DNA of 64,000 nt from an uncultured Sphaerobacteraceae bacterium (GTDB lineage Bacteria > Chloroflexota > Chloroflexia > Thermomicrobiales > UBA6265). The position numbers and the translations under genes are program-made. This document shows positions 19,072-52,518 of this stretch, in pieces (the first letter of the stretch is position 1; every line of letters begins with the position of its first letter). A model generated the notes under the pieces. It searched no databases and was not told where the DNA came from. It saw only the letters and a program-made list of their open reading frames with translations. The stretch lies in the NCBI GenBank assembly GCA_964461025.1, contig CAYWSE010000007.1:1260-65259 (forward strand), in the 5' to 3' direction.

Positions 19072-20751
19072 ATGGAAAAGGCAAGACTTGGAATCGACAC
19101 GCTCATTGCTGGCGCGGCATCAGGTGAGATGTCCCGTCGCGACATCATCAAGGGTGCGGCGGCGCTCGGCATGGGCGCCACGTTCGGCATCGCACTGGCG
19201 GGCGCTTCGGGCGTTGGCGCCCAGGAAGGCATGACGCTGACATTCGACGCCGGCGCGACGCAAGGCGGCGGCGGTCGCCCCAACACCGAGCACCCGGCGT
19301 ATAGCTTCATCATTAACGGCGGCAGCCAGTTCGAGATCAACCGGATGGTCGATGCACGATTAGTGACCCTCTCTGCCGACCTTCAGGAGTGGGTCGGCGA
19401 TCTCGCCGAAAGCTGGGAAGTCGTCGACGACGTCTACACGTTCAAGCTGCGTGAGAATGCCGTCTGGCACGATGGTACGCCGGTGACCGCAAAGGACGTC
19501 GTCTTCACGATCAATCTTCTCACCGATCCGGCGACGACCTCCCGCTGGGGATCGTCGTTCCGCAACGTTGTCGGGTATGCCGAGGCACAGGAAGCCGAGA
19601 CGCCGACGTCGCTGACCGGCGTCACCGCACCGGACGACTACACCGTGCAGATCGAACTGGCCCAGGCCGATTCCGGCATGCTGTCCGGTTTCATCTTCAT
19701 TAACATCCTGCCCGAGCACGTGCTGGGAACAGCCGACCGGGCCACGATCACCGAACTGCCCTACTGGACAACCTCTGAGCGCGTCGGCGCCGGGCCGTTC
19801 AAGTTCGTGCAGTTGGTGGAAGGCGAGCGCGTCGAGCTGGTGGCTCACGAGCAGTACCATCACGGCGCTCCGGCGGTCAAGAATCTGAATCTCCTCTTCT
19901 TCGCCAGTGCCGCGACCTCGCTTGCCGCGCTGCAGGAAGGGTCGAACCTCGTGGCGCCAATGTCGGTGGCCGAGCTGGAGCTTGTCGAGGGAACGGAAGG
20001 CGCTGAGGTTGTCGGCTTTCCCGCCGGGGTCGGCGTGATCTTCTACAACACATTGCAGCCCGAGCTCAATGACAAGCGTGTCCGTCAGGCGATGGCTTAT
20101 GCGATCGACAAGGTGACGATCTGCGAAACACTCTTCCAGGGTTACGCCAGTCCGGTATCGACTGAGATTCCGTACGTCACGTGGGCACAGCCAGACGATG
20201 CCAATCCATACGATTACGACCCAGAAAAAGCCAAGGAGCTCCTCGCGGAGGCTGGCTGGACTGGCGAGCGAACGCTTGGCTTCTGGTACTACTACACCGA
20301 CCCAATCACCGCGCTGGTGATGGAAGCAATGCAGCAGTATCTTGCCGCCGTCGGCATCAACACCGAGTTGAAGTTCGACGATGGCTCAGGCGTGCGCACG
20401 CAGGAGATCGCCGACAAGACGTGGGATATGACCTATGGCTCGTTCGGCGCGCAGCCATCACCGGCCAACCTGACGGCCGTCTGGGGTCCTCCTGGCGAGG
20501 TGACCTACGGTTGGCTGAACGACGACTTCAACGCCGAGATGGACGCCGCATTGCTCACCTACGACCGGGACGAGCAGGCCGTCCACTATCAGAATGCAAT
20601 CCGCATTCTGAACGAAGAGTCGCCCTCAGTCTGGCTGTACGACCGTCGGAATTTGATCGCCCTGAACTCAGCCAGACTGCAGAACTCGGTGTGGGGACCT
20701 GGGCACATCTACTGGGCCAACCGCGCATTCGAGTGGACAGTCGCCGAGTAA
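19072..20751 (+). CDS. ABC transporter substrate-binding protein, family 5 (peptide/opine/oligosaccharide type), Tat signal
   Basis: Twin-arginine leader SRRDIIKGAAALGMGATFGIALAGASGVGAQ. Family-5 core YTFKLRENAVWHDGTPVTAKDVVFT. Confidence 0.85.
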   Translation: MEKARLGIDTLIAGAASGEMSRRDIIKGAAALGMGATFGIALAGASGVGAQEGMTLTFDAGATQGGGGRPNTEHPAYSFIINGGSQFEINRMVDARLVTLSADLQEWVGDLAESWEVVDDVYTFKLRENAVWHDGTPVTAKDVVFTINLLTDPATTSRWGSSFRNVVGYAEAQEAETPTSLTGVTAPDDYTVQIELAQADSGMLSGFIFINILPEHVLGTADRATITELPYWTTSERVGAGPFKFVQLVEGERVELVAHEQYHHGAPAVKNLNLLFFASAATSLAALQEGSNLVAPMSVAELELVEGTEGAEVVGFPAGVGVIFYNTLQPELNDKRVRQAMAYAIDKVTICETLFQGYASPVSTEIPYVTWAQPDDANPYDYDPEKAKELLAEAGWTGERTLGFWYYYTDPITALVMEAMQQYLAAVGINTELKFDDGSGVRTQEIADKTWDMTYGSFGAQPSPANLTAVWGPPGEVTYGWLNDDFNAEMDAALLTYDRDEQAVHYQNAIRILNEESPSVWLYDRRNLIALNSARLQNSVWGPGHIYWANRAFEWTVAE

Positions 20752-20774
20752 AGGCGCACGCAACGTGAATCGCG

Positions 20775-20798
20775 GGGAGGAGAGTCGACTCTCCTCCC
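20775..20798 (+). terminator. Perfect 10-bp stem-loop between the binding-protein and permease genes (partial terminator or mRNA stabiliser)
   Basis: GGGAGGAGAG-TCGA-CTCTCCTCCC, 24 nt after the stop of 19072..20751. The downstream sequence is only moderately T-rich. Confidence 0.45.
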
Positions 20799-20886
20799 TG
20801 CTTCCACCGTCGTTTGCTCTTCCATTGATCTTTGCAAAGCACGACACCGACCGTCTCGCATGAACAGGGTGCCGGGAATCTGAGGC

Positions 20887-21843
20887 GTGACAACCTATCT
20901 CATCCATCGTTTGCTCCATGCCATCACGATCATGCTTGGCATCAGCATTCTCGTTTTCGCCTTCGTCGAGCTGGCCCCGGGCGATGCGATCGATGCGATG
21001 ATGCCTCCCGAAACCTTCGCGACTCCGGAGGCGAAAGAAGCAGCGCGCGAGCGGCTGGGGCTGAATGACCCAGCGCCACTGCGTTATGTGCAGTGGCTCG
21101 GCCGGGCTGTCACCGGCGATCTCGGCTACTCGCTGACTTCGCGGCAACCGGTCACCGACATCATCATGGTTCGGCTTCCGAAAACACTTCAGCTGGTCGG
21201 CACCGCAATGGTTTTCTCGATCATCGTGGGAGTGTCGACCGGAATCATCTCGGCACTTCGCCAATACACCTGGATCGACTACGCCGCGACCTTTTTCTCT
21301 TTCTTCTGGTTGTCCGTGCCGGGATTCTTTCTCGGGTTGATGATGATCTATCTATTTGCCGTGAAATTGAACTGGTTTCCTGTCTTCGGCGCATCGTCGC
21401 CGGGCGCCGACTACCCGATTCTCGACCGCCTGCATCATCTGGTCCTGCCTTCCGTCGTTATCGGGCTCGATTTGGCCGCGGCGCTGACGCGCTACACCCG
21501 CGCCAGTCTGTTGGAGGTCATGCGAGCCGACTACATGCGAACCGCCCGCGCCAAAGGTTTGAAAGAGCGCATCGTCATTGTCCGTCATGGATTGAAGAAC
21601 GCCTTGATCCCGATCATCACTGTCGTCGCCTTTCGCATGCCATACCTGATCAGCGGCGCGGTGGTCATTGAAACCGTTTTCCAGTGGCCCGGCCTGGGAT
21701 TGCTGACCCTCAACGCCGCCAACCAGAAAGACTATCCGCTGGTGCTGGCCCTTGCCCTGGCCGTGACCATCATCGTCGTCGTCAGCAGCTTTCTCGCCGA
21801 CATTGCCTACAGCATCGTCGATCCAAGGATTCGGATCGGATGA
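20887..21843 (+). CDS. ABC transporter permease (DppB/OppB-like)
   Basis: GTG start. Typical N-terminus YLIHRLLHAITIMLGISILVFAFVELAPGD and EAA-loop region YMRTARAKGLKERIVIVRHGLKNALIPI. Confidence 0.85.
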   Translation: MTTYLIHRLLHAITIMLGISILVFAFVELAPGDAIDAMMPPETFATPEAKEAARERLGLNDPAPLRYVQWLGRAVTGDLGYSLTSRQPVTDIIMVRLPKTLQLVGTAMVFSIIVGVSTGIISALRQYTWIDYAATFFSFFWLSVPGFFLGLMMIYLFAVKLNWFPVFGASSPGADYPILDRLHHLVLPSVVIGLDLAAALTRYTRASLLEVMRADYMRTARAKGLKERIVIVRHGLKNALIPIITVVAFRMPYLISGAVVIETVFQWPGLGLLTLNAANQKDYPLVLALALAVTIIVVVSSFLADIAYSIVDPRIRIG

Positions 21844-22739
21844 GCGCTCTCGCGTCGACCTCCGCGCTTACCTCGCCCGATACGGCGACGCTGACCCGCG
21901 TACGCCAGCGGGCGAGCTTCTGGAAGCGTCTGGCCAGACATCGCGTCGCGCTGGTGAGTCTTTTCTTCCTGGCGTTCATGGGTTTGGCTGCGCTGCTGAC
22001 GCCCTACGTCTCGCCATACGATCCCTATGCCATGAGTCTCGGGGAAGGGGGCAAAACGCCGAGTCTGGAGCACCCTCTTGGCACAGACAAACTCGGCCGG
22101 GACACGTTGACGCGCGTCTTTGTAGGCGGCAGGGTGTCGATTGCCGTCGCCCTGAGTGCCGTCGCCATCAGCTCTTCGCTCGGCACCGTGCTGGGGCTCA
22201 TCGCTGGTTTTCGCGGGGGATGGGTCGATGCCCTCATCATGCGTGTCACCGACGTGTTCATGGCATTCCCAATCTTCGTGCTGCTGATCGTCCTGGTGTC
22301 GATGCTCGGTTCCAGCGCGAAGAACATCGTGCTGATCATCGGCTTGCTTAGCTGGATGGGTGTTGCGCGGCTGGTGCGAGGGCAGGTGCTTTCGGTGATG
22401 AACGAGCCGTATATCGAATCGGCGACGTCGACCGGAGCCCGTTCGAGTCAGTTGCTTCTGAGGCATGTCCTGCCGAACAGCTACATCCCGATCGTCGTTG
22501 CCAGCACCCTTGGCGTGGCGAATGCCATGTTGCAGGAAGCAGCGTTGAGCTTCCTCGGTCTGGGCATTCAGCCGCCCACCCCGTCCTGGGGAAACATGCT
22601 GAACTCCGCTCAATCTCTTCAGGTGTTGGTGAATGAACCGTGGGTCTGGATTGGGCCCGGGCTCGCAATTGCCCTGACGGTGCTGGCGATCAACTTCCTT
22701 GGAGACGGTCTGCGCGACGCACTCGACCCGCACGCCTGA
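21840..22739 (+). CDS. ABC transporter permease (DppC/OppC-like)
   Basis: ATG 21840 overlaps the upstream stop (ATGA). Motifs HPLGTDKLGRDTLTRVFVGGR and YIESATSTGARSSQLLLRHVLPN. The track's 21684 start is an out-of-context Arg-rich extension. Confidence 0.85.
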   Translation: MSALASTSALTSPDTATLTRVRQRASFWKRLARHRVALVSLFFLAFMGLAALLTPYVSPYDPYAMSLGEGGKTPSLEHPLGTDKLGRDTLTRVFVGGRVSIAVALSAVAISSSLGTVLGLIAGFRGGWVDALIMRVTDVFMAFPIFVLLIVLVSMLGSSAKNIVLIIGLLSWMGVARLVRGQVLSVMNEPYIESATSTGARSSQLLLRHVLPNSYIPIVVASTLGVANAMLQEAALSFLGLGIQPPTPSWGNMLNSAQSLQVLVNEPWVWIGPGLAIALTVLAINFLGDGLRDALDPHA

Positions 22740-32517: not shown

Positions 32518-34113
32518 TTGATCAAGCACAGCAGATTCCGAAAGCCATTGCTCTTCCTGGGCTTACTGGCGTTGGTGGCCTCGATTATGGCCCCCACCAT
32601 GGCCGTGGCGCAGGATTCCAGCGAGGGCGGTGGTGGCGTCCTGGTCGGCGCGTTCGACGTCGGACCGGGTGGCGCGCCGGAACAGTTCAATCCGCTCACG
32701 GCGGGTGCCGGATTTACATGGTTCGAGAAGTATTTCTCGAAACTCATGCTCTACAACACCGACTTTACCGAGATTCAGGGCGAGCTTGCAGAATCGTGGG
32801 AGATCAATGAGGACGCCACCCAGTACACGATTCATCTGCGCGACGGCATCACGTGGCACGACGGTGAGCCATTTACGTCCGCGGACGTAAAGTTCACCAT
32901 TGAGTTTGCCGCAAATCCAGATAGCGCCAGCTACATCGGCGCCAAGTTCACGTCCGTCGAGTCAATCGACACGCCGGACGATCTGACAGCGGTGCTCAAT
33001 CTGAGCAACCCAAATGCGACGCTGCTTGACGCCTTCACCTTCCTGGTGATGTTGCCGATGCACGTGCTTCAGGACATGGCGCCGGCCGACATGATCGAGT
33101 CCGACTGGTGGCGCACAAGTCCGATCGGCACTGGCCCCTTCAAATGGGTGAAGTACGAACCCGGCCAATATGTCGAGCTCGCGGCGTATGATGATTACTG
33201 GCGAGGACGCCCAGTGCTCGATGGCATCATCAATCGCTATTTTCCCGAAGCGGGAAGCTCGGTGATCGCCCTTCGCGCCGGTGATATTTCATTCACCTAC
33301 CTGACGACGGACGAGGCGCTCGATCTTCAGGGAGACGACGCATTCACGGTGCTCGAGGGTCCCTCGCTGGTGGTCAATGCGTTCGGCTTTGATTTGACCG
33401 ATGAACGATTCCAGGATGCTCGAGTACGTCAGGCATTTGCTTACGCTCTCGATCGCCAGATCATGATCGATCAGCTCTTCCAGGGAACGGCCACCGCGGT
33501 GCCCTGCGCCTACCTTCTGCCGCAATTCATTCCGGCGGAGGTGAACATGTACGAATACGATGTCGCGATGGCGCAATCGTTGCTTGCGGAAGCTGGCTTC
33601 GATGCCAGTCAGCCGATTGAGATCGTAACGTACTACTCGGATCAGCTCTCACAGGACGTGATGGTCACTGTCCAGCAGTTCCTGGCAGATGCCGGGGTCA
33701 CCGTTACGCTGCGCACGACCGACACGCCCGGCACCTACAACGAAGTTGTCGCCGATCCCGCCCAGTGGGACATCGCCTACTTCGGCGCTGCCAACGGACC
33801 TGACCCTGACGTGTTGTCGACGCACTTCGAGTCGAAGGCCGCGAATCCGGCCGTGATCAACCGCTCGGGCATCGCCAATGACGAGCTCGACGCACTCTTC
33901 GCCGAGGGCCGCACAACGGTCGATCCAGCGGCGCGTGCCGAGGTCTACCAGCAGATTTGCTCGATCATGAACCAGGAACTCTACTGGATTCCGATGTGGG
34001 TCACCACGCGGTTCGGTGGCGTCTCGGTCACTGTCGAGAACTTCGTCTGGACACCGGCTCCGGGTGGCGGCCGCTATTACGATGCAGCGCACCTTTGGAG
34101 TCTCGCATCCTGA
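32518..34113 (+). CDS. ABC transporter substrate-binding protein, family 5 (second copy), Sec-type signal
   Basis: AGGAG lies 6 nt before TTG 32518. Leader MIKHSRFRKPLLFLGLLALVASIMAPTMAVAQD. Core YTIHLRDGITWHDGEPFTSADVKFT. Confidence 0.85.
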   Translation: MIKHSRFRKPLLFLGLLALVASIMAPTMAVAQDSSEGGGGVLVGAFDVGPGGAPEQFNPLTAGAGFTWFEKYFSKLMLYNTDFTEIQGELAESWEINEDATQYTIHLRDGITWHDGEPFTSADVKFTIEFAANPDSASYIGAKFTSVESIDTPDDLTAVLNLSNPNATLLDAFTFLVMLPMHVLQDMAPADMIESDWWRTSPIGTGPFKWVKYEPGQYVELAAYDDYWRGRPVLDGIINRYFPEAGSSVIALRAGDISFTYLTTDEALDLQGDDAFTVLEGPSLVVNAFGFDLTDERFQDARVRQAFAYALDRQIMIDQLFQGTATAVPCAYLLPQFIPAEVNMYEYDVAMAQSLLAEAGFDASQPIEIVTYYSDQLSQDVMVTVQQFLADAGVTVTLRTTDTPGTYNEVVADPAQWDIAYFGAANGPDPDVLSTHFESKAANPAVINRSGIANDELDALFAEGRTTVDPAARAEVYQQICSIMNQELYWIPMWVTTRFGGVSVTVENFVWTPAPGGGRYYDAAHLWSLAS

Positions 34114-34124
34114 ACTGAGCGCTT

Positions 34125-34152
34125 TTCGGGCCGGCCTGCGGGCCGGCCCGAA
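34125..34152 (+). terminator. 12-bp GC-rich stem-loop after the second binding-protein gene
   Basis: TTCGGGCCGGCC-TGCG-GGCCGGCCCGAA, 12 nt after the stop. It sits in the same position as the hairpin at 20775. Confidence 0.45.
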
Positions 34153-34213
34153 GCTCTTCCACAAAGCGGTCACTCTCCTGGCAAATGACGATCTGAAGGA
34201 TCTTTAGTCGCAA

Positions 34214-35170
34214 ATGGGCCAATACATTATTCGACGGCTGATTATTACGATTCCGCTGCTCATCGCGATCTCCTTTTTCGTGTTCGCTCTCCTCCAGTTC
34301 ACGCCCGGCGATCCGGTCGACTCCTATCTGCCGCCTGATGCGATGGTCTCACCCGAGCAACGCGAGCAGATTCGGCACCAGATGGGGCTCGACCGGCCAT
34401 TTCTGGTCCGGTACGGCTACTGGCTGAAAGAAACAGCGACCGGCAACCTGGGTTTCCGGTTGATCGCCAAGGAACCTGTCGCTGATGCGATTCGAAACCG
34501 CATTCCAGCGACCCTGTTGCTCATGGGCACCGCGATGGCGATTGGCATCACACTCGGAGTCTTCTTCGGGGTGATCTCCGCAGTTAAGCAATACTCTGTC
34601 CTGGATGGTCTCCTGACAGTCTTTGCGCTCCTGGGGCTCTCGCTACCGGTCTATCTGGCCGGTCTTCTAGGGCTTTATTTCTTTTCGCTGAAGTTCGATC
34701 TCTTTCCCGCTGGCGGGTACTCGACACCTGGGCAGCCGTTTTCGTTGACCGACCGCTTGCACCATCTGATTCTTCCTGCCTCGATTATCGCAATCAATTA
34801 CATCGCCTCGACCATGCGCTACACGCGTTCGGCGATGCTCGAAGTACTCGGTCAGGACTACGTGCGCACCGCGCGTTCGAAAGGTCTCTCCGAAGTCGTC
34901 GTGATCGGCAAGCACGCGTTTCGCAATGCGCTGATTCCAGTCGTCACGATCGTGGGCACCTACGTCCCCTTCTTGCTCGGCGGGGCAGTGTTCATCGAAT
35001 CGATCTTTGGATGGCCGGGTCTCGGCCGTCTCTTCCTGGAAGGGGTTGGTCAGCGCGACTATCCGTTGATTATGGGCCTGACGCTGATACTGGCCGTGAT
35101 GATTTTGATCGTCAATTTGCTGATCGACGTCATCTACGCCTTCGTCGATCCCCGGATTCGATATGACTGA
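34214..35170 (+). CDS. ABC transporter permease (DppB-like, second copy)
   Basis: MGQYIIRRLIITIPLLIAISFFVFALLQFTPGD...YVRTARSKGLSEVVVIGKHAFRNALIPV. It is a paralog of 20887..21843. Confidence 0.85.
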   Translation: MGQYIIRRLIITIPLLIAISFFVFALLQFTPGDPVDSYLPPDAMVSPEQREQIRHQMGLDRPFLVRYGYWLKETATGNLGFRLIAKEPVADAIRNRIPATLLLMGTAMAIGITLGVFFGVISAVKQYSVLDGLLTVFALLGLSLPVYLAGLLGLYFFSLKFDLFPAGGYSTPGQPFSLTDRLHHLILPASIIAINYIASTMRYTRSAMLEVLGQDYVRTARSKGLSEVVVIGKHAFRNALIPVVTIVGTYVPFLLGGAVFIESIFGWPGLGRLFLEGVGQRDYPLIMGLTLILAVMILIVNLLIDVIYAFVDPRIRYD

Positions 35171-36083
35171 TCATGCCGCCGCATTGCCGCCGGCCGGCGG
35201 TCATGTCTCCGACACATTCGGCCGGGAAACGATAATCGACACTCCGGTCCGGCAAGTCGTGCGCCGCTTTTCACGACACAAACTGGCGATGTCCGGGTTG
35301 GCGATCTTTCTGGTCATCGTGGTGCTTTGCGTGTTCGCACCGATGATCGGACGGTACGATCCAGATACCGTCGATTTGATGGCTCGCAACCAGGGGCCAT
35401 CGCGCGAGCATTTCTTTGGCACTGACCGAACCGGGCGCGATACGTTCACGCGGGTTCTTTACGCTGGGCGGGTCTCCCTGGCCGTCGGCGTCGTTGCCGT
35501 TGCGATTTCAGTTGCCATCGGACTCGTGCTTGGTTCGACCGCAGGTTACTTCGGCGGCAGAGTGGACAATCTGATCATGCGGATGACCGACGTGATGATG
35601 ACCTTTCCCCCTGTCGTCCTCATCCTCACCGTTTCGGCTATCGCCGGACCAGGCGTCCGCAACACGATGCTGGTCATTGGGCTTCTCAATTGGCCTGTTC
35701 CCTGCCGGTTGGTGCGTGCCCGGTTTCTCCAGGTGCGAGAGATGGAGTATGTAACGGCCGCGCGGTCGCTCGGAGTTCCCTCTCGCCGGATCATAGGTCG
35801 GCATGCTCTCCCGAATGTCATCGATGTGATGATTGTTTATGTCACTCTGGGCGTCGCAAATGCCATCTTGCTCGAAGCTGGCATGAGCTTCCTGGGCGTC
35901 GGTGTGCAGCCCCCTACTCCCAGTTGGGGCAATATGTTGAACGTCGCTCGCAACATCAGCGTGCTGGAAGGCGATCCATGGCAATGGATGCCTGCCGGAA
36001 CGGCAATCGTGCTGACAGTTCTCGCGGTCAACCTGATCGGCGACGGCCTGCGCGACGCGCTCGACCCCCGCACACGAATCTAG
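35163..36083 (+). CDS. ABC transporter permease (DppC-like, second copy)
   Basis: 8-nt overlap with the upstream gene. Motifs HFFGTDRTGRDTFTRVLYAGR and YVTAARSLGVPSRRIIGRHALPN. Confidence 0.85.
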   Translation: MTDHAAALPPAGGHVSDTFGRETIIDTPVRQVVRRFSRHKLAMSGLAIFLVIVVLCVFAPMIGRYDPDTVDLMARNQGPSREHFFGTDRTGRDTFTRVLYAGRVSLAVGVVAVAISVAIGLVLGSTAGYFGGRVDNLIMRMTDVMMTFPPVVLILTVSAIAGPGVRNTMLVIGLLNWPVPCRLVRARFLQVREMEYVTAARSLGVPSRRIIGRHALPNVIDVMIVYVTLGVANAILLEAGMSFLGVGVQPPTPSWGNMLNVARNISVLEGDPWQWMPAGTAIVLTVLAVNLIGDGLRDALDPRTRI

Positions 36084-40295: not shown

Positions 40296-41930
40296 TCACC
40301 AGGCCAGGGCGTAGCCGTCGCGGCGGGGATCAGCGCCGGCCGCGAAGCTGCCCGTATCGGGGTCGATCATGATGCCCTGTCCTCCGCCAACGAGATGCGA
40401 CCAATCACCCAGATGCTCCAGATTGTGTCCACGCTGAGCGAGACCGTCGAGCGTATCGGCGAGTACACGCGTTTCGATCTGCAGGGTCGTCCCATCGGTC
40501 GCTTTGATGCGCGGCGCTTCGATTGCCGCCTGGATCGAGTACTCGTGATCGACCAGATTGCTGATCATTTGCGGTGTTGTCTGCAGAATGCCGAACGATC
40601 CCGGCGTGCCGATCACGCCAAAGAGCGTGTCGTCGCGCAAAATCGCCGCAGGAGCCATGCACATCTCGATATTCCGGTTCGGTCCGATCACATTCGGGCT
40701 GGCGGGATCGAAGTCGAACCAATAGCCGAAGTTGTTCAACATCAGTCCGGTTTCCCCAGCCATCACGCCACTGCCAAACCCGTCGCCCAGCGACTGCGTG
40801 ACGGTCACAGCGTTGCCCTCTGAGTCAACGACGTCGAAATGCGTCGTGCATTCCTTCAGCGCGAACGCCGGATCAGCGGGTGGCACCGCATCGACCGGGC
40901 GAATACCGCGATAACGCTCACCTTCCACTCTCGCCGCTTGATCCGGATCGATCATCGCCTGTCGTTCGGCGGTGTAGTCATCGGAAAGCATCGCAACGAG
41001 ATCGAGGCATGGATTGGTCGTATAAGCGATGCGATCGGCCACCGCCAGCTTGAACGCCTCCGCCAGGGTATGCAGATGCTCGGTAGAGCTATGCACCATA
41101 TCGGCAATATCGAATCCCTGCAAAATGCCAAATGCCTGCAGGTATTGCCAGCCACTGCAGTTCGGCGGTGGACACGCAATCGTATAGCCGCGATAGGCTC
41201 GCGTCAGCGGCTCTTTCCATTGCGGCTGATAGCTGGACATGTCCTCGGCGTCGATCAGACCGCCTTGCGACTGAATCGACTCGACGATCTCAGCCGCCAG
41301 CTCACCCCGGTAGAACGATTCGAGCCCGCCTTTGACGACGCGCTCGAACGTTCTTGCCAGCTTCGGTTGCCGAATCACTTCCCCCGCTTTTGGCGCCCGT
41401 CCTTCCGGCATGAACACAGCCTTGGTCATGGCGGTCAGATTGCCGGCATTGAACATGGCGTCGTAGAACCAGGCGTTTTTGACCGTCAACGGCACACCGA
41501 CAGTCGCGTACTCGATGGCCGGCGCGAAGATCGTCGACAAATCGAGTTTTCCGTAGTCGCGATGAGCGGTGAGCCACCCGGCCGCTGCGGTAGGCACGAG
41601 TGGCGCCTTCGCTCCGTAGTTCTTTTCGGCTTCGGTCGCGAATGCATCGAGCGAGGCGTTGCGCGAGCTCGGTCCGACATAGTCCAGCACGCGCAGCACG
41701 CGCTCTCTGGCCGTATAGACCATCATGTAGCCGCTGCCGCCGATACCTGACATGTAAGGCTCGGCGACATTCAGCGCGGCCGCTGTGGCCACCGCGGCAT
41801 CGACAGCATTGCCTCCCGCCTGCAGCGTGCGCATGCCGGCAAGCGTGGCGAGTGGATGCGCCGACGCCACCGCGCCACGCGTGCCCATCGCCACCGGACG
41901 GTGCGCCAGCCCCTTGTTTGCCCAGGCCAT
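40296..41930 (-). CDS. ggt: Gamma-glutamyltransferase
   Basis: GAVASAHPLATLAGMRTLQAGGNAVDAAVA...GIGGSGYMMVY. Autoprocessing/catalytic Thr in CTTHFDVVD. GFGSGVM...GLMLNN. The start is ATG 41930 with a GGGGGAAG RBS. Confidence 0.85.
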   Translation of the reverse strand: MAWANKGLAHRPVAMGTRGAVASAHPLATLAGMRTLQAGGNAVDAAVATAAALNVAEPYMSGIGGSGYMMVYTARERVLRVLDYVGPSSRNASLDAFATEAEKNYGAKAPLVPTAAAGWLTAHRDYGKLDLSTIFAPAIEYATVGVPLTVKNAWFYDAMFNAGNLTAMTKAVFMPEGRAPKAGEVIRQPKLARTFERVVKGGLESFYRGELAAEIVESIQSQGGLIDAEDMSSYQPQWKEPLTRAYRGYTIACPPPNCSGWQYLQAFGILQGFDIADMVHSSTEHLHTLAEAFKLAVADRIAYTTNPCLDLVAMLSDDYTAERQAMIDPDQAARVEGERYRGIRPVDAVPPADPAFALKECTTHFDVVDSEGNAVTVTQSLGDGFGSGVMAGETGLMLNNFGYWFDFDPASPNVIGPNRNIEMCMAPAAILRDDTLFGVIGTPGSFGILQTTPQMISNLVDHEYSIQAAIEAPRIKATDGTTLQIETRVLADTLDGLAQRGHNLEHLGDWSHLVGGGQGIMIDPDTGSFAAGADPRRDGYALAW

Positions 41931-42028
41931 CTGTTCTTCCCCCTGAACGAAAATATGAAACAAGCTGGGCGATATTGTGTCACAGCCCAGCTTGTCGTGT
42001 TGTCGATGTGGTTGCCGGCGGGCGCGGT

Positions 42029-43924: not shown

Positions 43925-44191
43925 CGGGAAGGTATTCCTGGACGTAGACTGGAAAGACAACGGTGTCGGGTCTTGTCCGGTCATTCGCCAGACAACCGGT
44001 CAATTGTGCACGGCGGCAGGCATTTTCGCCAGTTTTCAAGCTAGCCGCCACGGCGGTAACATCGAATGGCTCGCCTCATCAGACGTGATGCCTCTCCCAA
44101 ACCGATCGCGAGGTTGAGAGTTGCCGCCTGGGCATGCACTATTCGGTTCGGGTGACCTCTAAGTGCCAGGTCTGGGGGTTTGAACGCAAAT

Positions 44192-45286
44192 ATGACGCAC
44201 AGTGCAGAACCGCAGTTCTGGTCGGTGATCCCGGCCGGTGGCTCAGGCAGCCGGCTCTGGCCGCTGAGTCGCGCCAACCGGCCAAAATACCTGTTGCCAC
44301 TGCTGGGGGAGATGTCCCTCCTGCAACAGACATACGATCGACTGCTGCCGCTCTCTCCACCCGAGCGAATTCTCGTGGTGGCCGGCGCTGCACATGCGAT
44401 GGAAATCGCCCGGCAGCTTCCCGATCTCCCACCCGAAAACATCATCATCGAACCCTCACCAAAAGGAACCGGCCCAGCGATCGGCCTCGCCGCCCGGCTG
44501 GTTGCCGAGCGCGATCCCGCCGCGATCATGGGCAGTTTTGCCGCCGACCATGTTGTCAGAGATAGCGACGCCTTTCTGGCCGCGATTCGTTCTGCGATTG
44601 CCGTTGCGCGGGAAGAATGGCTCACCACAATTGGCATCGAACCGATCCGACCGGAAATCGGCTACGGATATGTCGAGCGAACCGACACTTCGATCGGCGA
44701 CGATGACCCCGTTGCAGCCTGGATCGCGGCTGGATTCACTGAAAAGCCTGATTACGAACGAGCCGTCGAATTTGTCGCTTCCGGTCGCTTTCTCTGGAAC
44801 GCCAGCATGTTCATCTGGCGGGTTGACACCTTTCTGGCTGAACTGGAACGCTGTTTGCCGCAGGTGCGCAGGCGTATCGAGCGGATCGTTGATGTGTGGG
44901 ATACCGAAGACGCCGAATCGGTTGTGCCCGCGGAGTGGGGCAAGCTGAAAAGCGTGACTATCGATGACGGCGTCATGGAGCAAAGCGAACGCATAGCCGT
45001 CGTGCCGGCGGAAATCGGATGGTCCGATGTGGGAGACTGGCACGGTCTCGGAGAACTCGTGCAGCACGGTGAGGACGACAACGCCTTTCGCGGTGACGTT
45101 CTGCAGCATGGTTCGACCGATACGCTTGTCTGGTCGACGTCAAACCGCCTGGTCGCTCTCGTCGGCGTCGACGACCTTGCGGTTATCGATACGCCAGACG
45201 CACTGCTGATTGTCAACCGGTACCGGGCGCAGGAAGTCCGAGCGATCGTCGACAAACTTCGCGACGGGTATCCGGAACTGATCTGA
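44192..45286 (+). CDS. manC: Mannose-1-phosphate guanylyltransferase
   Basis: FWSVIPAGGSGSRLWPLSR...PKYLL, EPSPKGTGPAI, GYGYVE, WNASMFIW. Confidence 0.8.
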   Translation: MTHSAEPQFWSVIPAGGSGSRLWPLSRANRPKYLLPLLGEMSLLQQTYDRLLPLSPPERILVVAGAAHAMEIARQLPDLPPENIIIEPSPKGTGPAIGLAARLVAERDPAAIMGSFAADHVVRDSDAFLAAIRSAIAVAREEWLTTIGIEPIRPEIGYGYVERTDTSIGDDDPVAAWIAAGFTEKPDYERAVEFVASGRFLWNASMFIWRVDTFLAELERCLPQVRRRIERIVDVWDTEDAESVVPAEWGKLKSVTIDDGVMEQSERIAVVPAEIGWSDVGDWHGLGELVQHGEDDNAFRGDVLQHGSTDTLVWSTSNRLVALVGVDDLAVIDTPDALLIVNRYRAQEVRAIVDKLRDGYPELI

Positions 45287-47811
45287 TGCAAAAAGAGAAA
45301 TCCGCAATGGTCGAGGAACGGAAGAGTTCGGATCATGAAGACTTTCCGGTTGGGCTCGCCGAGATTCGAGCTGCTCAGCGGTTGCTTGGTGGATCGGCCG
45401 GCGATCTGCCCGCCGGGCCCGTCGCCATTCGCACACCGCTCGTCTTCAGTGAGCCGCTGACCCATCAGCTTGGCTGCCGGGTCTGGTTGAAGCTGGAGAA
45501 CCTGCAAAGAACCGGCTCGTACAAGGTTCGGGGCGCTTTCAACAACATTGCGAATCTCTCGCCTGAAACTCGGTCCAGAGGCCTGATTACCGCGTCGGCT
45601 GGTAATCACGCTCAAGGCGTCGCCGCAGCGGCGGCGGCATTCGGCGTTGCCGATAAGACCACCATCTTTGTGCCCGTTGGCACGCCAAAGGTCAAACAGG
45701 ACAACACCCGCGGTTTCGGCGTCGAAGTTCGCGAAACAGGCGACACGTTCGATCAGGCGCGCGAAGCAGCCTATCTGGAAGCCGCGCAATCAGAACGTGC
45801 ATTCATCGAACCCTTCGACGACTGGAACACGATCGCCGGTCAGGGCACAATCGGATTGGAGATCGCCGAGGACCTGCCGAGTTGCAGAGCCATCATTTCG
45901 CCAGTCGGCGGCGGTGGACTGATCTCTGGCATCGCCCTTGCCATCCGGGAACTTCTGCCCGACGTGACGATTGCCGGCGCTCAGGCAGCTGGCAGTGCAG
46001 CGATGCAACTCTCACTCGAGACCGGCGAACCGACCGCACTACCTGCCCCGCCGGCGACCCAGATTGCGGACGGCATCAAGGTCCGCAAACCGGGCGAACG
46101 GCCGTTTGCCGTCGTTCGATCGTTACTCGGTCGCGACGCGATCGTACCGGTGCCCGACATCGAAACGGTCGCCGCCGCTGCCGACCTGATGGTCTACGCC
46201 AAGCTCATCGCCGAAGGCGCCGGCGCCATCAGTCTTGCCGCTCTGCGCGAGATTCAGATGCGCCGTGCACCGTCGCACAACCCGTTTGGACCAGACGACG
46301 ATGTAGTGGTCATTGTCAGTGGCGGGAATATAGATCCCAGTTTCTCCTGGCGCATTCTTTACGAACAGACTGTCCCCAATCTGATCACACTGCGAGTGGC
46401 GATGCCCGATCGGCCAGGCGAGCTGCTGAGGATGCTTCTGCCGATCGCCAGGCAAAACGTCAACATCATCGACGTCGATGTGAACCGTCTCGACTCACGA
46501 CCACGCATCGGAGAGCGCATCGTCGAAGTTTGCGTGGCGATCGCGCACCAGGCTCAGGCAGATCAGCTCATCGCCTCACTCAATGAATCCGGCTACAGGG
46601 TGCTCGTCAGCCGGTGGCATGATCCGAAGTCCCAGACGGCTGGATACACGGTTCCGTCCGCCTACGCTGAAGTGCGGACCACCATCGAGCGGGCTATTCA
46701 GCCGGCTACGCAGACTGTGACTCCCGCCGCATCGGCTCCCTTCGTCGACCTCAGTATCGAGCACTTTCAACTGACCGACGCCCAGGGCCGGAGTCGCCCG
46801 GGGAACACCTTCTTGCCAGGTGAAGCGGTGTATGTTGGATTCAATCTGCGCAATGCGGGCCGGCACGGCGCACCAGCAGGTTTGAGGACCGGAGTCTACG
46901 CCAACGCCTCATCCGGAGGGATACCCGATCTGCGGATCGCTCCCGATTTGGCAATTCGGCACGGACCATTTACTCCCAGGCGAGCGCCATACCTCTATGG
47001 TTCATGGCCGGGAGGCCCCAAGAGCTCCCGATTTGCCGACCGGAAGACGTTCATCGCACAAGACGAACCTGGAACATACCTGGCCCTCGCGTGTGTGGAT
47101 CTCGATGGCGTGCTGGGTCCGGCGAACAACCGGCGGATGGCGAGCGTCGAGTATCAGATCGTCCAGGATCTGCCCACCGCTGAGGATCCAACCTACGAGG
47201 ATGATCTTGGCGCAGCGTCGCTAGTTGTGAACAAGAAGCGCCCACTTCCCCGCGATTACGTGCCCTCCGCACTTCGCCTGCCGAACGTGCCTCGCGACGA
47301 CAACCATGAAGTCCGTCCCGAGGTAGCGACGGCGGTGGAAGGTCTTTTTGCGGCGGCATTGCAGAAGGGCATCCGCCTTCGGCTTCTTTCCGGCTATCGA
47401 TCGTGGGCGCGGCAGAAAACGCTGCATGAGGAGATGGCGGGTTCATCTGGATTGACTAGAGCGTTGCGTCTCGTGGCCCGGCCGGGTTACAGCGAGCACC
47501 AATCCGGACTGGCGATCGATCTTGGTGATTCCGACAATACCGGCCTTGATTTTCACAACACTTTTGCCGATTCGCCCGCTGGTAAGTGGCTCGCCGCGAA
47601 CGCCGCAGATTTTGGGTTCCACGTGCGCTATCCACGGGATCGCGAAGCAATCACCGGATTCGCCTGGGAGTCGTGGCACTTCCGCTTTGTCGGAAGGACG
47701 CTGGCCAGGGAGCTGCAATCGACCGGAGTTACGCTCGAGGAGTACTTTGGAGTCGAAGGTGGCGATTACTTCGATAAGCCCGCCGAGCCAGGGATCTTTG
47801 CTGATGAGTGA
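45286..47811 (+). CDS. Three-part fusion: threonine/serine dehydratase-like fold-type-II PLP enzyme with ACT domain, then a CARDB-like beta-sandwich region, then a VanY/M15B D-Ala-D-Ala carboxypeptidase domain
   Basis: Single uninterrupted 841-codon ORF. ATG 45286 overlaps the manC stop (TGATG). PLP part: NLQRTGSYKVRGAFN, SAGNHAQGVA, PVGGGGLISG. ACT-like: LRVAMPDRPGELLRML. Middle: LPGEAVYVGFNLRNAGRHGAP. M15B motifs: SGYRSWARQ, GYSEHQSGLAIDL, WESWHFRFVG. I saw no hydrophobic TM or signal segment. Confidence 0.75.
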   Translation: MQKEKSAMVEERKSSDHEDFPVGLAEIRAAQRLLGGSAGDLPAGPVAIRTPLVFSEPLTHQLGCRVWLKLENLQRTGSYKVRGAFNNIANLSPETRSRGLITASAGNHAQGVAAAAAAFGVADKTTIFVPVGTPKVKQDNTRGFGVEVRETGDTFDQAREAAYLEAAQSERAFIEPFDDWNTIAGQGTIGLEIAEDLPSCRAIISPVGGGGLISGIALAIRELLPDVTIAGAQAAGSAAMQLSLETGEPTALPAPPATQIADGIKVRKPGERPFAVVRSLLGRDAIVPVPDIETVAAAADLMVYAKLIAEGAGAISLAALREIQMRRAPSHNPFGPDDDVVVIVSGGNIDPSFSWRILYEQTVPNLITLRVAMPDRPGELLRMLLPIARQNVNIIDVDVNRLDSRPRIGERIVEVCVAIAHQAQADQLIASLNESGYRVLVSRWHDPKSQTAGYTVPSAYAEVRTTIERAIQPATQTVTPAASAPFVDLSIEHFQLTDAQGRSRPGNTFLPGEAVYVGFNLRNAGRHGAPAGLRTGVYANASSGGIPDLRIAPDLAIRHGPFTPRRAPYLYGSWPGGPKSSRFADRKTFIAQDEPGTYLALACVDLDGVLGPANNRRMASVEYQIVQDLPTAEDPTYEDDLGAASLVVNKKRPLPRDYVPSALRLPNVPRDDNHEVRPEVATAVEGLFAAALQKGIRLRLLSGYRSWARQKTLHEEMAGSSGLTRALRLVARPGYSEHQSGLAIDLGDSDNTGLDFHNTFADSPAGKWLAANAADFGFHVRYPRDREAITGFAWESWHFRFVGRTLARELQSTGVTLEEYFGVEGGDYFDKPAEPGIFADE

Positions 47812-48007
47812 CGCCGCAGATCGCAAGCCAGAACACTCGCCCGACGACCCGTTGGCCGAACCATTCGCGCTGCGTGATGTTTCGGAACGACTACCCAACG
47901 AGTCACTCCGCTCGGAGCTCGAAAAAATGTCAGAGGACGAACGGGAAGCCTACCTTCAGCACCTCGAGGAACTCTCGCGCCAATACCTCGGGCCGGGTGG
48001 TCCCTGA
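47804..48007 (+). CDS. Small acidic hypothetical protein (67 aa)
   Basis: ATG 47804 overlaps the end of the fusion gene by 8 nt. MSDAADRKPEHSPDDPLAEPFALRDVSERLPNESLRSELEKMSEDEREAYLQHLEELSRQYLGPGGP. Its stop abuts the stop of the convergent gene. Confidence 0.4.
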   Translation: MSDAADRKPEHSPDDPLAEPFALRDVSERLPNESLRSELEKMSEDEREAYLQHLEELSRQYLGPGGP

Positions 48008-49509: not shown

Positions 49510-49725
49510 TTAACCCTCGAAGCCGCGCACGACGCCTTGCAGGAGCTGCCCCGACTCGGCCATGACAAAACGCAATCCGTCGAGATGCACGAGCACTTCC
49601 AGCAGATCCTGTCCCTGAAAGTGCTCGACTCCGTCCGCCAGCTCGCAGCATTCAAGTAGTGCGCTGACGAGATTCTCACGCGCTTGTGCCGCTCGTGCCG
49701 CTGTTTGTCTCTTGTATTCGTCCAC
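49510..49725 (-). CDS. Small hypothetical protein downstream of the amidase (71 aa)
   Basis: GTG-start ORF 37 nt after the amidase stop, with a helical-looking sequence (ENLVSALLECCELADGVEHFQGQDLLEVLVHLDGL). I recognised no motif. Confidence 0.3.
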   Translation of the reverse strand: MDEYKRQTAARAAQARENLVSALLECCELADGVEHFQGQDLLEVLVHLDGLRFVMAESGQLLQGVVRGFEG

Positions 49726-49761: not shown

Positions 49762-51144
49762 TCAAACCAGAGGGAATTCCCTTGGAATCGCGAGCGCATC
49801 CTCGACCCGCCGCCCGATTGCGAGCAAATGCTCATCTGCATACGGACGGCCAGCAAGCTGCAATCCGACAGGAAGGCCCTCGCCATCGAACCCGCACGGA
49901 ATCGATAGCGCCGGTTGCCCAGTCACGTTGAATGGCATCGACAACCGGGTATAGGCAAGACTGACATGCTCGCACGTGCCGTCCTCGTACGACACGACCG
50001 GGTCGTCGGCTGGTGCGGACACACCCGGAGTCGCCGGCGTCAGCATTGCATCGAGCTCGTACGCTTCGAACACCCTCCGGCATGAATCGGCAATGATCCG
50101 GCGTGCTTGCATCGCCCGCACATAGGCATTCGCGGGCACAAGAGCGCCCGATTCAATGCGCAGCCTCAGCTCCTCCCCGTAGCCGCCCCACTTTTCCGGC
50201 AAATCCGCAATGTGCACAGCCGAAGATTCGACCCGGTTGATGATGAAACTGCTTGCCCTGGCGATTCCCGCCTCAGGCCACGGAGATTCGATGATGGTGA
50301 TTCCGGCGGCGCGAAGCGCCCCAATTGCTGAATCGATCGCCGCAGCGACTCCAGGCTGCAACCGCTCGAAGAAATGGGGACGTGCTATACCGATCCGGCA
50401 GGTCGCCGGTCGGGACGGCGATGTCAGCCGGCGACCGCTGGACTGCATCACCCGGTAGAGCAGAGTCGCGTCGTCGATCGTTCTTGCCAGCGGACCAACC
50501 GTGTCGAGCGACCAGGAAAGAGGATACACGCCGTAAGTGTCGAGCACGCCGAATGTTGGCTTGAACCCGACCACTCCACAAACCGAAGCCGGGATGCGAA
50601 TGCTGCCGCCAGTATCTGAACCCATACCGGCCAGAGCTGAACCGGCGGCAATCGACGCCGCTGTTCCGCCAGACGATCCTCCGGGAATGCGATCCGGATT
50701 CCACGGATTCCGGGCTGGAGGACTGATCACCCCAGCTGCGAATTCCTGTGTCACGGTCTTGCCAAGGATGATCGCTCCTGATTCGCGGAGCAGGCGCACA
50801 ACTGCCGCATCCTCTGACGCGCGTTCGGCCTGGTCCCGCGACCGCGATCCGCATTTCGTCGGAGCCCCTTCGACGTCGAATATGTCCTTGATGCCGATGG
50901 GTATGCCATGCAACGGTCCGCGTGTTTCGCCTTTGGCAAGCTCCTCATCGCACAATCGAGCTTCCGTGCGCGCACCATCGTCATCGATCGATACCCAGGC
51001 GTGGACTGAAGGTTCTGTCTGCTCGGCACGCGCCAGGACAGACTCAACGAGCTCCGTCGCCGAAAGCGCGCGGCTCCGCATCAGCGATGCCGCCTCGAGG
51101 ATCGTCAGTGCCCAGGGATCCGATGCAGTCGCCGGCCCGTTCAC
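49762..51144 (-). CDS. Amidase-signature (GatA/AtzE-like) amidohydrolase
   Basis: GIPIGIKD...GGSSGGTAASIAAGSALAGMGSDTGGSIRIPASVCGVVGFKPTFG is the complete AS signature with the Ser-cisSer-Lys context. Confidence 0.85.
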   Translation of the reverse strand: MNGPATASDPWALTILEAASLMRSRALSATELVESVLARAEQTEPSVHAWVSIDDDGARTEARLCDEELAKGETRGPLHGIPIGIKDIFDVEGAPTKCGSRSRDQAERASEDAAVVRLLRESGAIILGKTVTQEFAAGVISPPARNPWNPDRIPGGSSGGTAASIAAGSALAGMGSDTGGSIRIPASVCGVVGFKPTFGVLDTYGVYPLSWSLDTVGPLARTIDDATLLYRVMQSSGRRLTSPSRPATCRIGIARPHFFERLQPGVAAAIDSAIGALRAAGITIIESPWPEAGIARASSFIINRVESSAVHIADLPEKWGGYGEELRLRIESGALVPANAYVRAMQARRIIADSCRRVFEAYELDAMLTPATPGVSAPADDPVVSYEDGTCEHVSLAYTRLSMPFNVTGQPALSIPCGFDGEGLPVGLQLAGRPYADEHLLAIGRRVEDALAIPREFPLV

Positions 51145-51441: not shown

Positions 51442-52518
51442 TCAGTCTTGCCCAGCCGGAGGTGTGGTCAGGAACGCCTCCAGCAAATCGACACAGGCGA
51501 CGACATCTCGCTCATCGACCATTTCGATTGGTGAATGGGTATAGCGGGTTGGATACGTGATCAGGGCTATCTCCGTTCCGCGTTTCAACAGCGCGGCGGC
51601 ATCACTGCCGTAGTTCTGATAGATCGCCCGTTGCACAGGAATCCCGTGTTCTGCCGCTACGGCGACAAGCCGCTCACACAAACGCCACGAGTAATGCGCC
51701 GAACTGTCGTGATAGACGATCGCCGGACCGCCGCCCATCACATTGGGATAGTCCCGCTTGTCTGGACCTGGAATATCTCCCACCAGGCCAACATCGAGAT
51801 TGAGACAAAGATCGACATCGATTTCGTCGGCAATGCTGCTGGCTCCCTGCAAACCCGCTTCTTCCTGCACGGTTGAAACAAGCCAGACTTCGTAGGCGAG
51901 ATCATCCCGGCCGGCGAGTCGCTCGGCGGCCATCGTGGCGATCGCCAGAGCGGCGCGGTCGTCCATCGCCTTCCCGGAAATGCGATGCTCGCCGATGCGA
52001 CGTGTCGGCGGATTCCATATCACCCGGCAACCAGCGTGAACGCCCATCGCTTCGGCTTCAGAACGCGTGGAGACGCCGAGATCGATAAACCAGTCGTTCC
52101 ACTCCCAGCCGTCCTTGTTCCGCTCCTTGCTCCCGACGACATGCCCGCTGGCCGTCGCGAAAACCCCCTGAACGGTCCCTGTCGGCGTCACGACAAGCGC
52201 GGGCTGGTTGAGAGGCATCACCCACTTCGGAGGTCGCCCACGCGCGTCGGTTGAATAAGGCCAGATGTGCAGAAAGCCGTCTTCATGGATGCTTTTCACC
52301 ATGAAGCAGATCTCGTCGGCATGCGCCATCAACGCCAGCCTCGGGCCGTTTCCGCCGAGCTTGCCGATGACGTTGTTGACCCTTGTGCGGCGCACTTCCG
52401 CGATACCCGTCCAGCGATCGGCGATCCAGTCCTGGACGACATCTTCCATGCCGGTTGGTCCGGGAAGCTCGGTCAGTGTCTTGATCAGGTCGAAGGTCGA
52501 TTCGTTTTTCGTAGCCAC
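51442..52518 (-). CDS. M42-family metallo-aminopeptidase (FrvX/YsdC-like)
   Basis: FDLIKTLTELPGPTGMEDVV...LMAHADEICFMV...GKAMDDRAA...STVQEEAGLQGA. Confidence 0.8.
   Translation of the reverse strand: MATKNESTFDLIKTLTELPGPTGMEDVVQDWIADRWTGIAEVRRTRVNNVIGKLGGNGPRLALMAHADEICFMVKSIHEDGFLHIWPYSTDARGRPPKWVMPLNQPALVVTPTGTVQGVFATASGHVVGSKERNKDGWEWNDWFIDLGVSTRSEAEAMGVHAGCRVIWNPPTRRIGEHRISGKAMDDRAALAIATMAAERLAGRDDLAYEVWLVSTVQEEAGLQGASSIADEIDVDLCLNLDVGLVGDIPGPDKRDYPNVMGGGPAIVYHDSSAHYSWRLCERLVAVAAEHGIPVQRAIYQNYGSDAAALLKRGTEIALITYPTRYTHSPIEMVDERDVVACVDLLEAFLTTPPAGQD

Follow-up and report, generated by a model that had tools for sequence, protein, structure and literature searches.

An open reading frame (ORF) at positions 45286-47811 of the forward strand in the analysed stretch of contig CAYWSE010000007.1 (64,000 nucleotides, hereafter the window), from an uncultured Sphaerobacteraceae bacterium, joins two well-known enzyme families in a combination that is new and limited to a small uncultured clade. 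In order, the encoded protein of 841 amino acids (aa) comprises a pyridoxal-phosphate (PLP) enzyme of fold-type II and threonine/serine dehydratase kind, an ACT-like domain, a CARDB-like beta-sandwich and an M15B (VanY/LdcB) zinc peptidase. The explanation preferred here, at a probability of roughly 0.6, is a bifunctional cytoplasmic protein of an uncultured Thermomicrobiales subclade, in which a deaminase and an LdcB-type peptidase, brought together by one old fusion, would work independently of each other.

Continuity of the fusion gene

The fusion gene consists of 841 codons plus a stop and contains no internal stop; a stop-free run of this length would arise by chance with a probability of about 3e-12 (calculated from the window GC content of 60.8%), and the opposite strand is full of stops. 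A public gene call (P0001, 834 aa) places the start at Met8 (45307). Upstream, the ORF overlaps a manC-like gene in an exact TGATG (TGA at 45284-45286, ATG at 45286-45288), and downstream its stop overlaps the ATG of a conserved 67-aa ORF by 8 nucleotides (ATGAGTGA, 47804-47811). No transmembrane or signal-like segment was detected in the 841 aa by Kyte-Doolittle hydropathy, the top 19-residue window (1.82) being the GGGGLISG phosphate loop of the PLP domain. A preliminary description, made from the DNA letters alone, had reported the stop-free frame, a complete fold-type-II PLP enzyme with an ACT-like domain, a beta-sandwich-like spacer, an M15B peptidase with all zinc and catalytic motifs, the lack of a signal peptide or transmembrane segment and the manC overlap; each of these observations was borne out by the analyses given here and below.

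The two halves are joined by a linker that starts with a clade-specific tail, SRWHDP... (46621-46740, forward strand; residues 446-485, delimited by alignment), which is predicted to be disordered by AlphaFold2 (AF2), with a predicted local distance difference test score (pLDDT) of 40-51. Given the rarity of the architecture and the fact that unfused orthologues end at this same tail, it might be supposed that an indel removed a stop codon, or that an internal start yields separate PLP and peptidase proteins; nothing positive beyond these two points speaks for such an artefact. The same continuous ORF is, however, present in six diverged orthologues from independent assemblies and different pipelines, and fused loci without a frameshift or stop occur on at least 11 independent contigs (ENA, Logan, JGI and NCBI, including the GenBank metagenome locus L089). 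Furthermore, the linker is in frame with a ratio of nonsynonymous to synonymous substitution rates (dN/dS) of 0.12, GC content by codon position is uniform across the segments of the ORF, and the linker DNA carries no Shine-Dalgarno/start motif and no promoter or terminator matches above chance. An internal-start product would, in any case, still lack a signal peptide. The preliminary description had itself raised an assembly indel, separate genes at orthologous loci and an unrecognised export signal or internal start in the middle region as ways in which it might fail; at the orthologous loci, however, the gene is again one continuous ORF, or else the PLP part stands alone and no peptidase gene is present, and no such export or start signals are present in the sequence. 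An artefact is thus scarcely credible.

Orthologues and evolutionary history

A search of 5.8 billion proteins returned five further proteins with PF00291 plus PF02557: P0002 (842 aa, 76% identical), P0003 (846 aa, 59%), P0006 (820 aa, 54%, on a 929-kb contig) and two fused proteins without the middle domain, P0004 (693 aa) and P0005 (682 aa). A 684-aa member is available at NCBI (MEZ4498966.1, 'MAG: pyridoxal-phosphate dependent enzyme [Thermomicrobiales bacterium]'), and the close relatives are named Thermomicrobiales. Among the best 150 matches of an exhaustive search of 1.84 billion representative proteins, no PALP-VanY protein outside the clade was found; since an independent fusion with approximately 40%-identical halves would rank near the top, the two halves appear to occur together only in this clade. 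Public annotation of the fusion and its relatives is generic ('threonine dehydratase' or 'pyridoxal-phosphate dependent enzyme'), and literature searches for the fusion and for Thermomicrobiales peptidoglycan gave no description of the architecture among the papers listed, in agreement with the earlier remark that no described protein of this kind was known to its author.

Apart from the fused forms, the clade contains unfused orthologues (P0007-P0011 and P0246) of 461-476 aa, which are 64-69% identical over the N-terminal half. They end in a tail of approximately 25 residues, SRWQDPxVDRxGN..., which is also how the linker of the fused proteins begins. Where the contigs could be read (P0008 and P0011), the unfused gene occupies the same syntenic slot, and the small ORF and Ldh_2 come directly after it without a peptidase gene. 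In a scan of JGI metagenomes, seven of eight clade loci were unfused, and the cluster of P0246 has 20 members.

A neighbour-joining tree of the N-terminal half (441 aligned columns) resolved two clades. Clade A (96% bootstrap) comprises the long P0003, followed by the long pair of the window protein and P0002 and the short pair of P0004 and P0005; clade B (100% bootstrap) holds the unfused proteins together with the long P0006. In the tree of the VanY domain, the six fused proteins are monophyletic (100% bootstrap) with respect to 26 stand-alone or exported relatives, and they branch in the same order as in the N-terminal tree: P0006, P0003, ((window, P0002), (P0004, P0005)). The congruence of the two halves implies one fusion before the split of clades A and B, followed by vertical descent; a single old fusion is, as far as aligned sequences can tell, shown. 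Later, the beta-sandwich was deleted in frame (giving the forms of 682-693 aa), and most of clade B shed the whole C-terminal module (461-476 aa). Resolution within clade B is poor (19-43%), so that the number of losses is not fixed, and an old transfer of the C-terminal module is a possible alternative to fusion plus losses.

All domains of the fusion are, as judged from substitution rates, under purifying selection. Against the orthologue at locus L002, dN/dS is 0.08 for PALP, 0.04 for ACT, 0.12 for the linker, 0.20 for the middle domain and 0.10 for VanY; over PALP, ACT, middle and VanY the range is 0.04-0.24, with VanY at 0.10-0.24 down to 48% identity, values that are rough since dS is near saturation. 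These values also bear on whether the C-terminal module could be a passenger, left behind after a chance deletion had joined ilvA to the gene of an exported wall enzyme lying downstream, mislocalised, with little or no function and now eroding. In favour of this reading, one sub-lineage has lost the beta-sandwich by deletion, and the larger sister group, which is unfused, has no part of the module; unfused forms are also the commoner ones in the counts given above, and among the folded parts dN/dS peaks in the middle domain. Nevertheless, the constraint on VanY holds down to 48% identity, all five residues with a putative catalytic or zinc-binding role are unchanged across the six orthologues, no frameshifts or stops have accumulated in the 11 or more contigs and the peptidase domain models at a pLDDT of about 95. 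A mere passenger is therefore a very improbable account of the module as a whole.

The deaminase half

The PLP fold-type-II catalytic domain of Thr/Ser ammonia-lyase type (45427-46323, forward strand, residues 48-346) matches Pfam PALP with an E-value of 1.8e-72, and the ACT-like regulatory domain that follows (46336-46620, forward strand, approximately residues 351-445) is delimited by the coverage of TIGR01127 and by a weak Pfam ACT match (residues 368-422, E 1e-3); relatives have ACT or ACT_4 matches on record. TIGR01127 (ilvA_1Cterm) aligns residues 50-440 with model positions 1-379 of 380. The best PDB matches of the PLP half are TdcB and IlvA, with serine racemases scoring lower. In the alignment with TdcB (2gn0), K80 falls on the Schiff-base K58, and SAGNHAQG, GGGGLI and SGGNID are kept. 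Across 11 orthologues, fused and unfused, K80 (in SYKVRGAF), SAGNH, GGGG and SGGN are invariant; since the motifs are identical with and without the peptidase, the fusion has left no mark on the active site. In fold-type-II racemases such as serine racemase, a second catalytic Ser lies opposite the Lys in an S-S-G-N-H loop. The loop reads S-A-G-N-H in the window protein and in all orthologues, the racemase-type second Ser being absent.

Conservation within the protein is highest in the ACT-like domain (97% identity to P0002, 78-79% to P0006 and P0011). As a side observation, this domain outdoes the catalytic domain in conservation (97% against 83% in the comparison with P0002, with the dN/dS of 0.04 given above), which suggests an unusually strong constraint for a regulatory domain. 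Another unusual threonine-deaminase fusion was met among the database proteins, namely P0292 (710 aa), an IlvA-type enzyme with a different N-terminal extension of approximately 320 residues.

The peptidase domain

The C-terminal domain (47218-47775, forward strand, approximately residues 645-830) is an M15B zinc peptidase of the LdcB/VanY type, matched by Pfam VanY (PF02557) over residues 674-803 with an E-value of 2.6e-39 and 134.4 bits against a gathering threshold of 25. The motifs SGYRS, SEHQSGLAID and ESWH are present, and five putative catalytic and zinc residues, assigned by alignment with SpLdcB of Streptococcus pneumoniae (Arg in SGYRS, His and Asp in SEHQSGLAID, Glu and His in ESWH), are invariant in the six fused proteins. 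In SpLdcB the zinc ligands are His153, Asp160 and His207, in addition to Arg120 and Glu204 (Hoyland et al. 2014, PMC4087270). As read from alignments, of the S1' residues of SpLdcB, Tyr191 is retained in the fused proteins, which have either Phe or Tyr in the place of Tyr201.

The preliminary description had called this domain a VanY-type D,D-carboxypeptidase, an assignment that could not be upheld, as the closest characterised relatives by both sequence and fold are LdcB of B. subtilis (BsLdcB) and B. anthracis (BaLdcB). These are the closest PDB sequence matches, and the domain aligns with BsLdcB (4ox3) and BaLdcB (4mph) end to end with just 5-residue and 1-residue gaps; the C-terminal tail EEYFGVEGGDY aligns with LdcB as well and resembles EEYYGFEGGDYVD of SpLdcB. 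In a Foldseek comparison with PDB, the top places went to BaLdcB (4jid, 4mph) and BsLdcB (4ox3), with 39-40% identity and a TM target of 0.76-0.89; VanXYc, SpLdcB, VanY-B and VanXYg came next. LdcB is without the beta4-alpha5 selectivity loop of VanXY (PMC4087270). The corresponding region after the zinc Asp has the length found in BsLdcB and BaLdcB (1-residue gap), a comparison made by length with LdcB. In sequence and in the predicted model alike, the peptidase is closest to the LD-carboxypeptidase LdcB rather than to VanY or VanXY.

A cytoplasmic DD-peptidase of the VanXY/VanY kind, which would cleave D-Ala-D-Ala and/or UDP-MurNAc-pentapeptide and alter cross-linking or glycopeptide susceptibility, is a possible but unlikely alternative. 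Pfam places the domain under VanY, the zinc ligands, Arg and Glu are common to all M15B enzymes, and VanXYc, which is itself cytoplasmic, is a close structural match (TM target 0.82-0.87, 36% identity). Similarly, the gap between the best NCBIfam M15B model, LdcB NF041194 (122.5 bits against a cut-off of 275), and vanXY (107.6 against 250) is small, the vanY models following at 74-84 against 400-425, and all of these scores are below the cut-offs. Nevertheless, LdcB is best by sequence and fold, both domain and tail align with it throughout, the ancestors appear to have been exported wall enzymes with CARDB repeats, and no van-type ligase, dehydrogenase or regulator lies nearby. A DD-carboxypeptidase would destroy UDP-MurNAc-pentapeptide, so that a constitutive one, co-translated with a housekeeping enzyme, would probably be costly. 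LdcA of E. coli, in comparison, is a constitutive cytoplasmic LD-carboxypeptidase that does no harm to precursor synthesis and serves recycling. LD specificity is thus favoured, both because LdcB is the closest relative and because of this expected damage to pentapeptide precursors. The 'VanY' label does not imply glycopeptide resistance here.

Beta-sandwich and origin of the C-terminal module

Residues 441-841 were modelled by AF2 from a 30-sequence alignment (mean pLDDT 85). In the model, residues 441-485 are disordered, an all-beta domain at approximately 489-625 (pLDDT >90) follows, and a short flexible hinge at 633-640 leads to the alpha/beta peptidase domain at approximately 642-821 (pLDDT ~95). 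The all-beta domain (46741-47181, forward strand, approximately residues 486-632) was identified as a CARDB-like immunoglobulin (Ig)-type beta-sandwich by AF2, Foldseek and BLASTP together. Foldseek matched it to Ig-like folds, including CARDB 3idu (TM target 0.71), RhoGDI, NBR1 and the Wzt carbohydrate-binding domain. The segment alone gave no Pfam match; in BLASTP it matched the two repeats of P0253 (E 8e-20 and 2e-18), which pass Pfam CARDB (PF07705) at 34.8 and 23.6 bits against a threshold of 22.7. It is missing from the fused orthologues of 682-693 aa.

The exported relatives P0253 (555 aa), P0260 (577 aa) and P0254 (784 aa) were obtained from the exhaustive representative search and match window-protein residues ~449-828 (linker, beta-sandwich and peptidase) at approximately 37% identity over 380 residues. 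They are laid out as a hydrophobic signal or anchor, two to four CARDB repeats with Thr/Pro-rich linkers and a VanY domain with an EEYF.VPGG.Y tail. The nearest stand-alone VanY relatives (45-52% identity) are 'M15 family metallopeptidases' of 230-320 aa from Arthrobacter, Paenibacillus and others, and those whose sequences were read have lipoprotein or transmembrane N-termini. A word-indexed protein search with the C-terminal half returned stand-alone VanY proteins, with no match to the beta-sandwich, and missed P0002-P0006, which are 48-75% identical there; negative outcomes of the indexed search thus call for caution, the exported CARDB-VanY relatives having come to light only in the exhaustive one. 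From the exported CARDB-VanY homologues and the lipoprotein or transmembrane stand-alone relatives, it follows that the C-terminal module was once an exported wall enzyme and lost its export signal on fusion; at the level of homology, its exported ancestry is shown. The beta-sandwich was probably a wall-binding part of this ancestor, and it looks dispensable in the cytoplasm, given that its dN/dS exceeds that of the other segments and that the short forms have dropped it.

One further protein, P0126 (443 aa), was rejected as a relative of the middle domain, its high score having come from two tandem VanY domains. It is membrane-anchored, and its first VanY domain has Gly-Tyr-Val-Ser instead of SG(Y/F)RS, so that the two may form a pair of pseudo-enzyme and enzyme.

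Proposed function and alternatives

In the preferred explanation, the N-terminal 445 residues would be a short-form Thr/Ser ammonia-lyase, most likely still in its old job: PLP-dependent beta-elimination would convert L-Thr or L-Ser to 2-oxobutyrate or pyruvate plus ammonia, under amino-acid control via the ACT-like domain. The C-terminal 350 residues (beta-sandwich and LdcB-type peptidase) would derive, as one unit, from an exported wall enzyme, and with the signal peptide lost the peptidase would now be cytoplasmic, held on a disordered tether of approximately 40 residues. There, going by its relatives, it would most likely remove C-terminal D-Ala from D-Ala-terminated peptides, acting as an LD-carboxypeptidase on recycled tetrapeptide stems in preference to the biosynthetic pentapeptide. 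The two active sites would be independent, the fusion providing co-expression and not channelling.

A coupled pathway was considered as an alternative, in which the peptidase frees D-Ser, D-Thr or D-Ala from the end of dipeptides or stem peptides and the fused PLP domain deaminates or racemises it; the protein would then edit or salvage precursors in the cytoplasm, following a logic like that of VanT plus VanXY. The preliminary description had proposed such a coupling of cleavage to D-amino-acid deamination or racemisation, to which the analysis lent no positive support. Enzyme fusions often signal functional linkage, this one is old and under purifying selection, an independent association of such enzymes exists, serine racemases belong to fold-type II and are among the PDB matches at lower scores, and the PLP half misses the equivalog cut-offs for threonine ammonia-lyase. 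The PLP motifs, however, are the same in fused and unfused proteins, with no sign of retooling, and have SAGNH, with Ala for Ser, instead of the SSGNH of fold-type-II racemases. To our knowledge, D-Ala is the product of all characterised M15B enzymes, but it has no beta leaving group and cannot undergo beta-elimination. Sister lineages trimmed or lost the C-terminal module and retained the PLP gene, neither the window ORFs scanned nor the syntenic loci contain a Ddl-like ligase or VanRS, and the nearest Micromonospora PLP homologue lies in an ordinary locus, not in the pdx operon discussed below. In addition, 80 diverse one-ACT ilvA loci (~40% identical, taken from the matches listed in a contig scan with the generic patterns WLKLENLQ and AGNHAQGV) were searched with 6-kb flanks by tblastn using the VanY and CARDB segments, and neither segment gave a match (VanY neighbours in 0 of 80). 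Little credence can therefore be given to the coupled pathway. Functional linkage in a wider sense, either by a Ser/Thr-type residue of stem peptides or dipeptides fed to the PLP site, as a salvage or editing route within one protein, or by muropeptide binding that modulates the ACT-regulated deaminase and so couples branched-chain amino-acid synthesis to wall turnover, is likewise doubtful. Nothing shows the two halves acting on a common substrate.

Several points weigh against two independent enzymes of the kinds preferred here. The PLP half scores 328.5 bits with TIGR01127 against an equivalog cut-off of 378.75 and 309 with NF005600 against 496, and as it lies under these cut-offs its substrate could differ from L-Thr; moreover, the PGAP label of the relatives is just 'pyridoxal-phosphate dependent enzyme'. 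The peptidase half likewise scores far below the cut-off of the LdcB model, its best, and VanXYc is structurally nearly as close as LdcB. Characterised LdcB enzymes act outside the membrane on polymeric or soluble muropeptides, and recycling genes of the ampG, mpl and nagZ type were not seen near the fusion gene. A fusion selected for so long suggests some benefit of physical linkage that independent activities leave unexplained, and the near-saturated dS loosens the estimate of that selection. Equally, the C-terminal module may be marginal, given that particular lineages have lost it.

Genomic neighbourhood

The syntenic loci share the order BipA(-)/ManC(+)/fusion(+)/small ORF(+)/Ldh_2(-)/cupin(+)/71-aa ORF(-)/amidase(-). 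The manC-like nucleotidyltransferase gene (44180-45286, forward strand; Pfam NTP_transferase plus ManC_GMP_beta-helix), whose stop overlaps the ATG of the fusion, precedes fused and unfused orthologues alike; it overlaps the unfused gene in L003, and in another unfused locus ManC is cut off. The manC coupling is thus older than the fusion and is silent on the peptidase, which removes the ground for the earlier proposal that the overlap ties the fusion to the envelope.

The conserved 67-aa acidic ORF ending in YLGPGGP (47804-48007, forward strand) follows fused and unfused orthologues. Its counterparts, of 66-78 aa (...RDVSERLPNE.LRSELE.MSEEEREAYL.HLEELSRQYLGPGGP), stand after the IlvA-type gene in every locus read (L001 10466-10678, L002 7456-7659, L003 4864-5100, L004 10090-10290, L006 3526-3744), and over six loci the mean column identity is 64%, with 30 invariant columns. 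Pfam gave merely a sub-threshold match to DUF7167. From its conservation, the ORF looks like a real small protein that is co-translated with the deaminase.

Pfam analysis of 41 of the 48 picked window ORFs and of the 67-aa ORF revealed no ilv, ddl, mur, alr or van-type genes and no two-component pair, and the syntenic loci contain no Ddl-like ligase, VanRS, van-type dehydrogenase or regulator; Rfam gave no match over the whole window. The window does have peptide-catabolic content, namely two Opp/Dpp-type peptide ABC systems (19072-22739 and 32518-36083, forward strand), a gamma-glutamyltranspeptidase (40296-41963, reverse strand), an amidase-signature enzyme (49762-51144, reverse strand) and an M42 aminopeptidase (51442-52518, reverse strand). 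The last three are syntenic in relatives with and without the fusion, and a neighbourhood that is common to unfused relatives reflects common descent, not a link to the peptidase.

Two further small ORFs were noticed. The 71-aa ORF between the cupin and amidase genes (49510-49725, reverse strand; ...LDGLRFVMAESGQLLQGVVRGFEG) has a mean column identity of 87% and recurs in L002 (9165-9380), L004 (11784-11999), L006 (5249-5464), L003 (6632-6847) and L001 (13550-13765). A further ORF of 64-75 aa lies just upstream of the amidase in syntenic loci.

Implications

The fusion provides a clean natural example of an exported wall-hydrolase module moved, as its sequence suggests, to the cytoplasm by fusion with a housekeeping enzyme, with intermediate and reverted forms kept in sister lineages. 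If a cytoplasmic LD-carboxypeptidase is indeed present, it would be a counterpart, in family M15B, to LdcA-type murein recycling, and this in a phylum with poorly known envelope biology. If the halves were to cooperate, cell-wall turnover would be tied to amino-acid metabolism, which would be a new kind of connection. Neither glycopeptide resistance nor a new pathway can be deduced from the fusion, which calls for caution with the annotation 'VanY'.

Comparison with known systems

Among characterised enzymes, LdcB (DacB/YodJ) of B. subtilis, B. anthracis and S. pneumoniae (4ox3, 4mph, 4ox5) is the nearest to the peptidase domain (~40% identity, TM target up to 0.89). It shares with the fusion the zinc His/Asp/His, the Arg and the Glu, the EEY(F/Y)G.EGGDY tail and the beta4-alpha5 length of BsLdcB. 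It differs in being a protein of approximately 180-270 aa that is extracytoplasmic, with a signal or anchor, whereas the fusion domain forms the end of a protein of 841 aa that carries no export signal. The exported CARDB-VanY proteins P0253, P0254 and P0260 have two to four repeats, a signal or anchor and no PLP enzyme, in contrast to the one repeat of the fusion.

For the N-terminal half, the counterparts are short-form IlvA (TIGR01127; 'BTD1', Yu et al. 2013, PMC3851459) and TdcB (2gn0), to which residues 48-445 can be aligned along the entire model. The Schiff-base Lys, SAGNHAQG, GGGGL and SGGN are common to them and the fusion, and a single C-terminal ACT-like domain is present as in TIGR01127. 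Unlike short-form IlvA, the fusion continues into the clade-specific tail of approximately 25 residues and then a further 350 residues, and it does not lie in an ilv operon.

VanXY(C/G) and VanT of VanC-type resistance bring together a PLP enzyme and an M15 D-Ala-specific peptidase, as the fusion does. VanT, however, is a fold-type-III racemase. The VanXY/VanT genes, like those of the pdx operon, are separate, and their cassettes also contain a ligase and a two-component regulator, whereas no ligase or regulator is found near the fusion. The hypothetical 'pdx operon' of Micromonosporales, with PALP dehydratase-like, Ddl-like and VanX-like genes beside a vanRS-like pair (PMC8698665), is the only published association of a PLP dehydratase with an M15 peptidase that was found. 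Kinship with it was rejected, as the top Micromonospora locus (L009) has a cystathionine-type PLP enzyme, an amidase and PIG-L and neither Ddl nor VanX, and the resemblance is one of analogy only. In function, the nearest parallel may be LdcA of E. coli murein recycling, a serine peptidase of family S66 with an unrelated fold and mechanism, whose cytoplasmic removal of D-Ala from the recycled tetrapeptide is the role proposed, by analogy, for the peptidase of the fusion.

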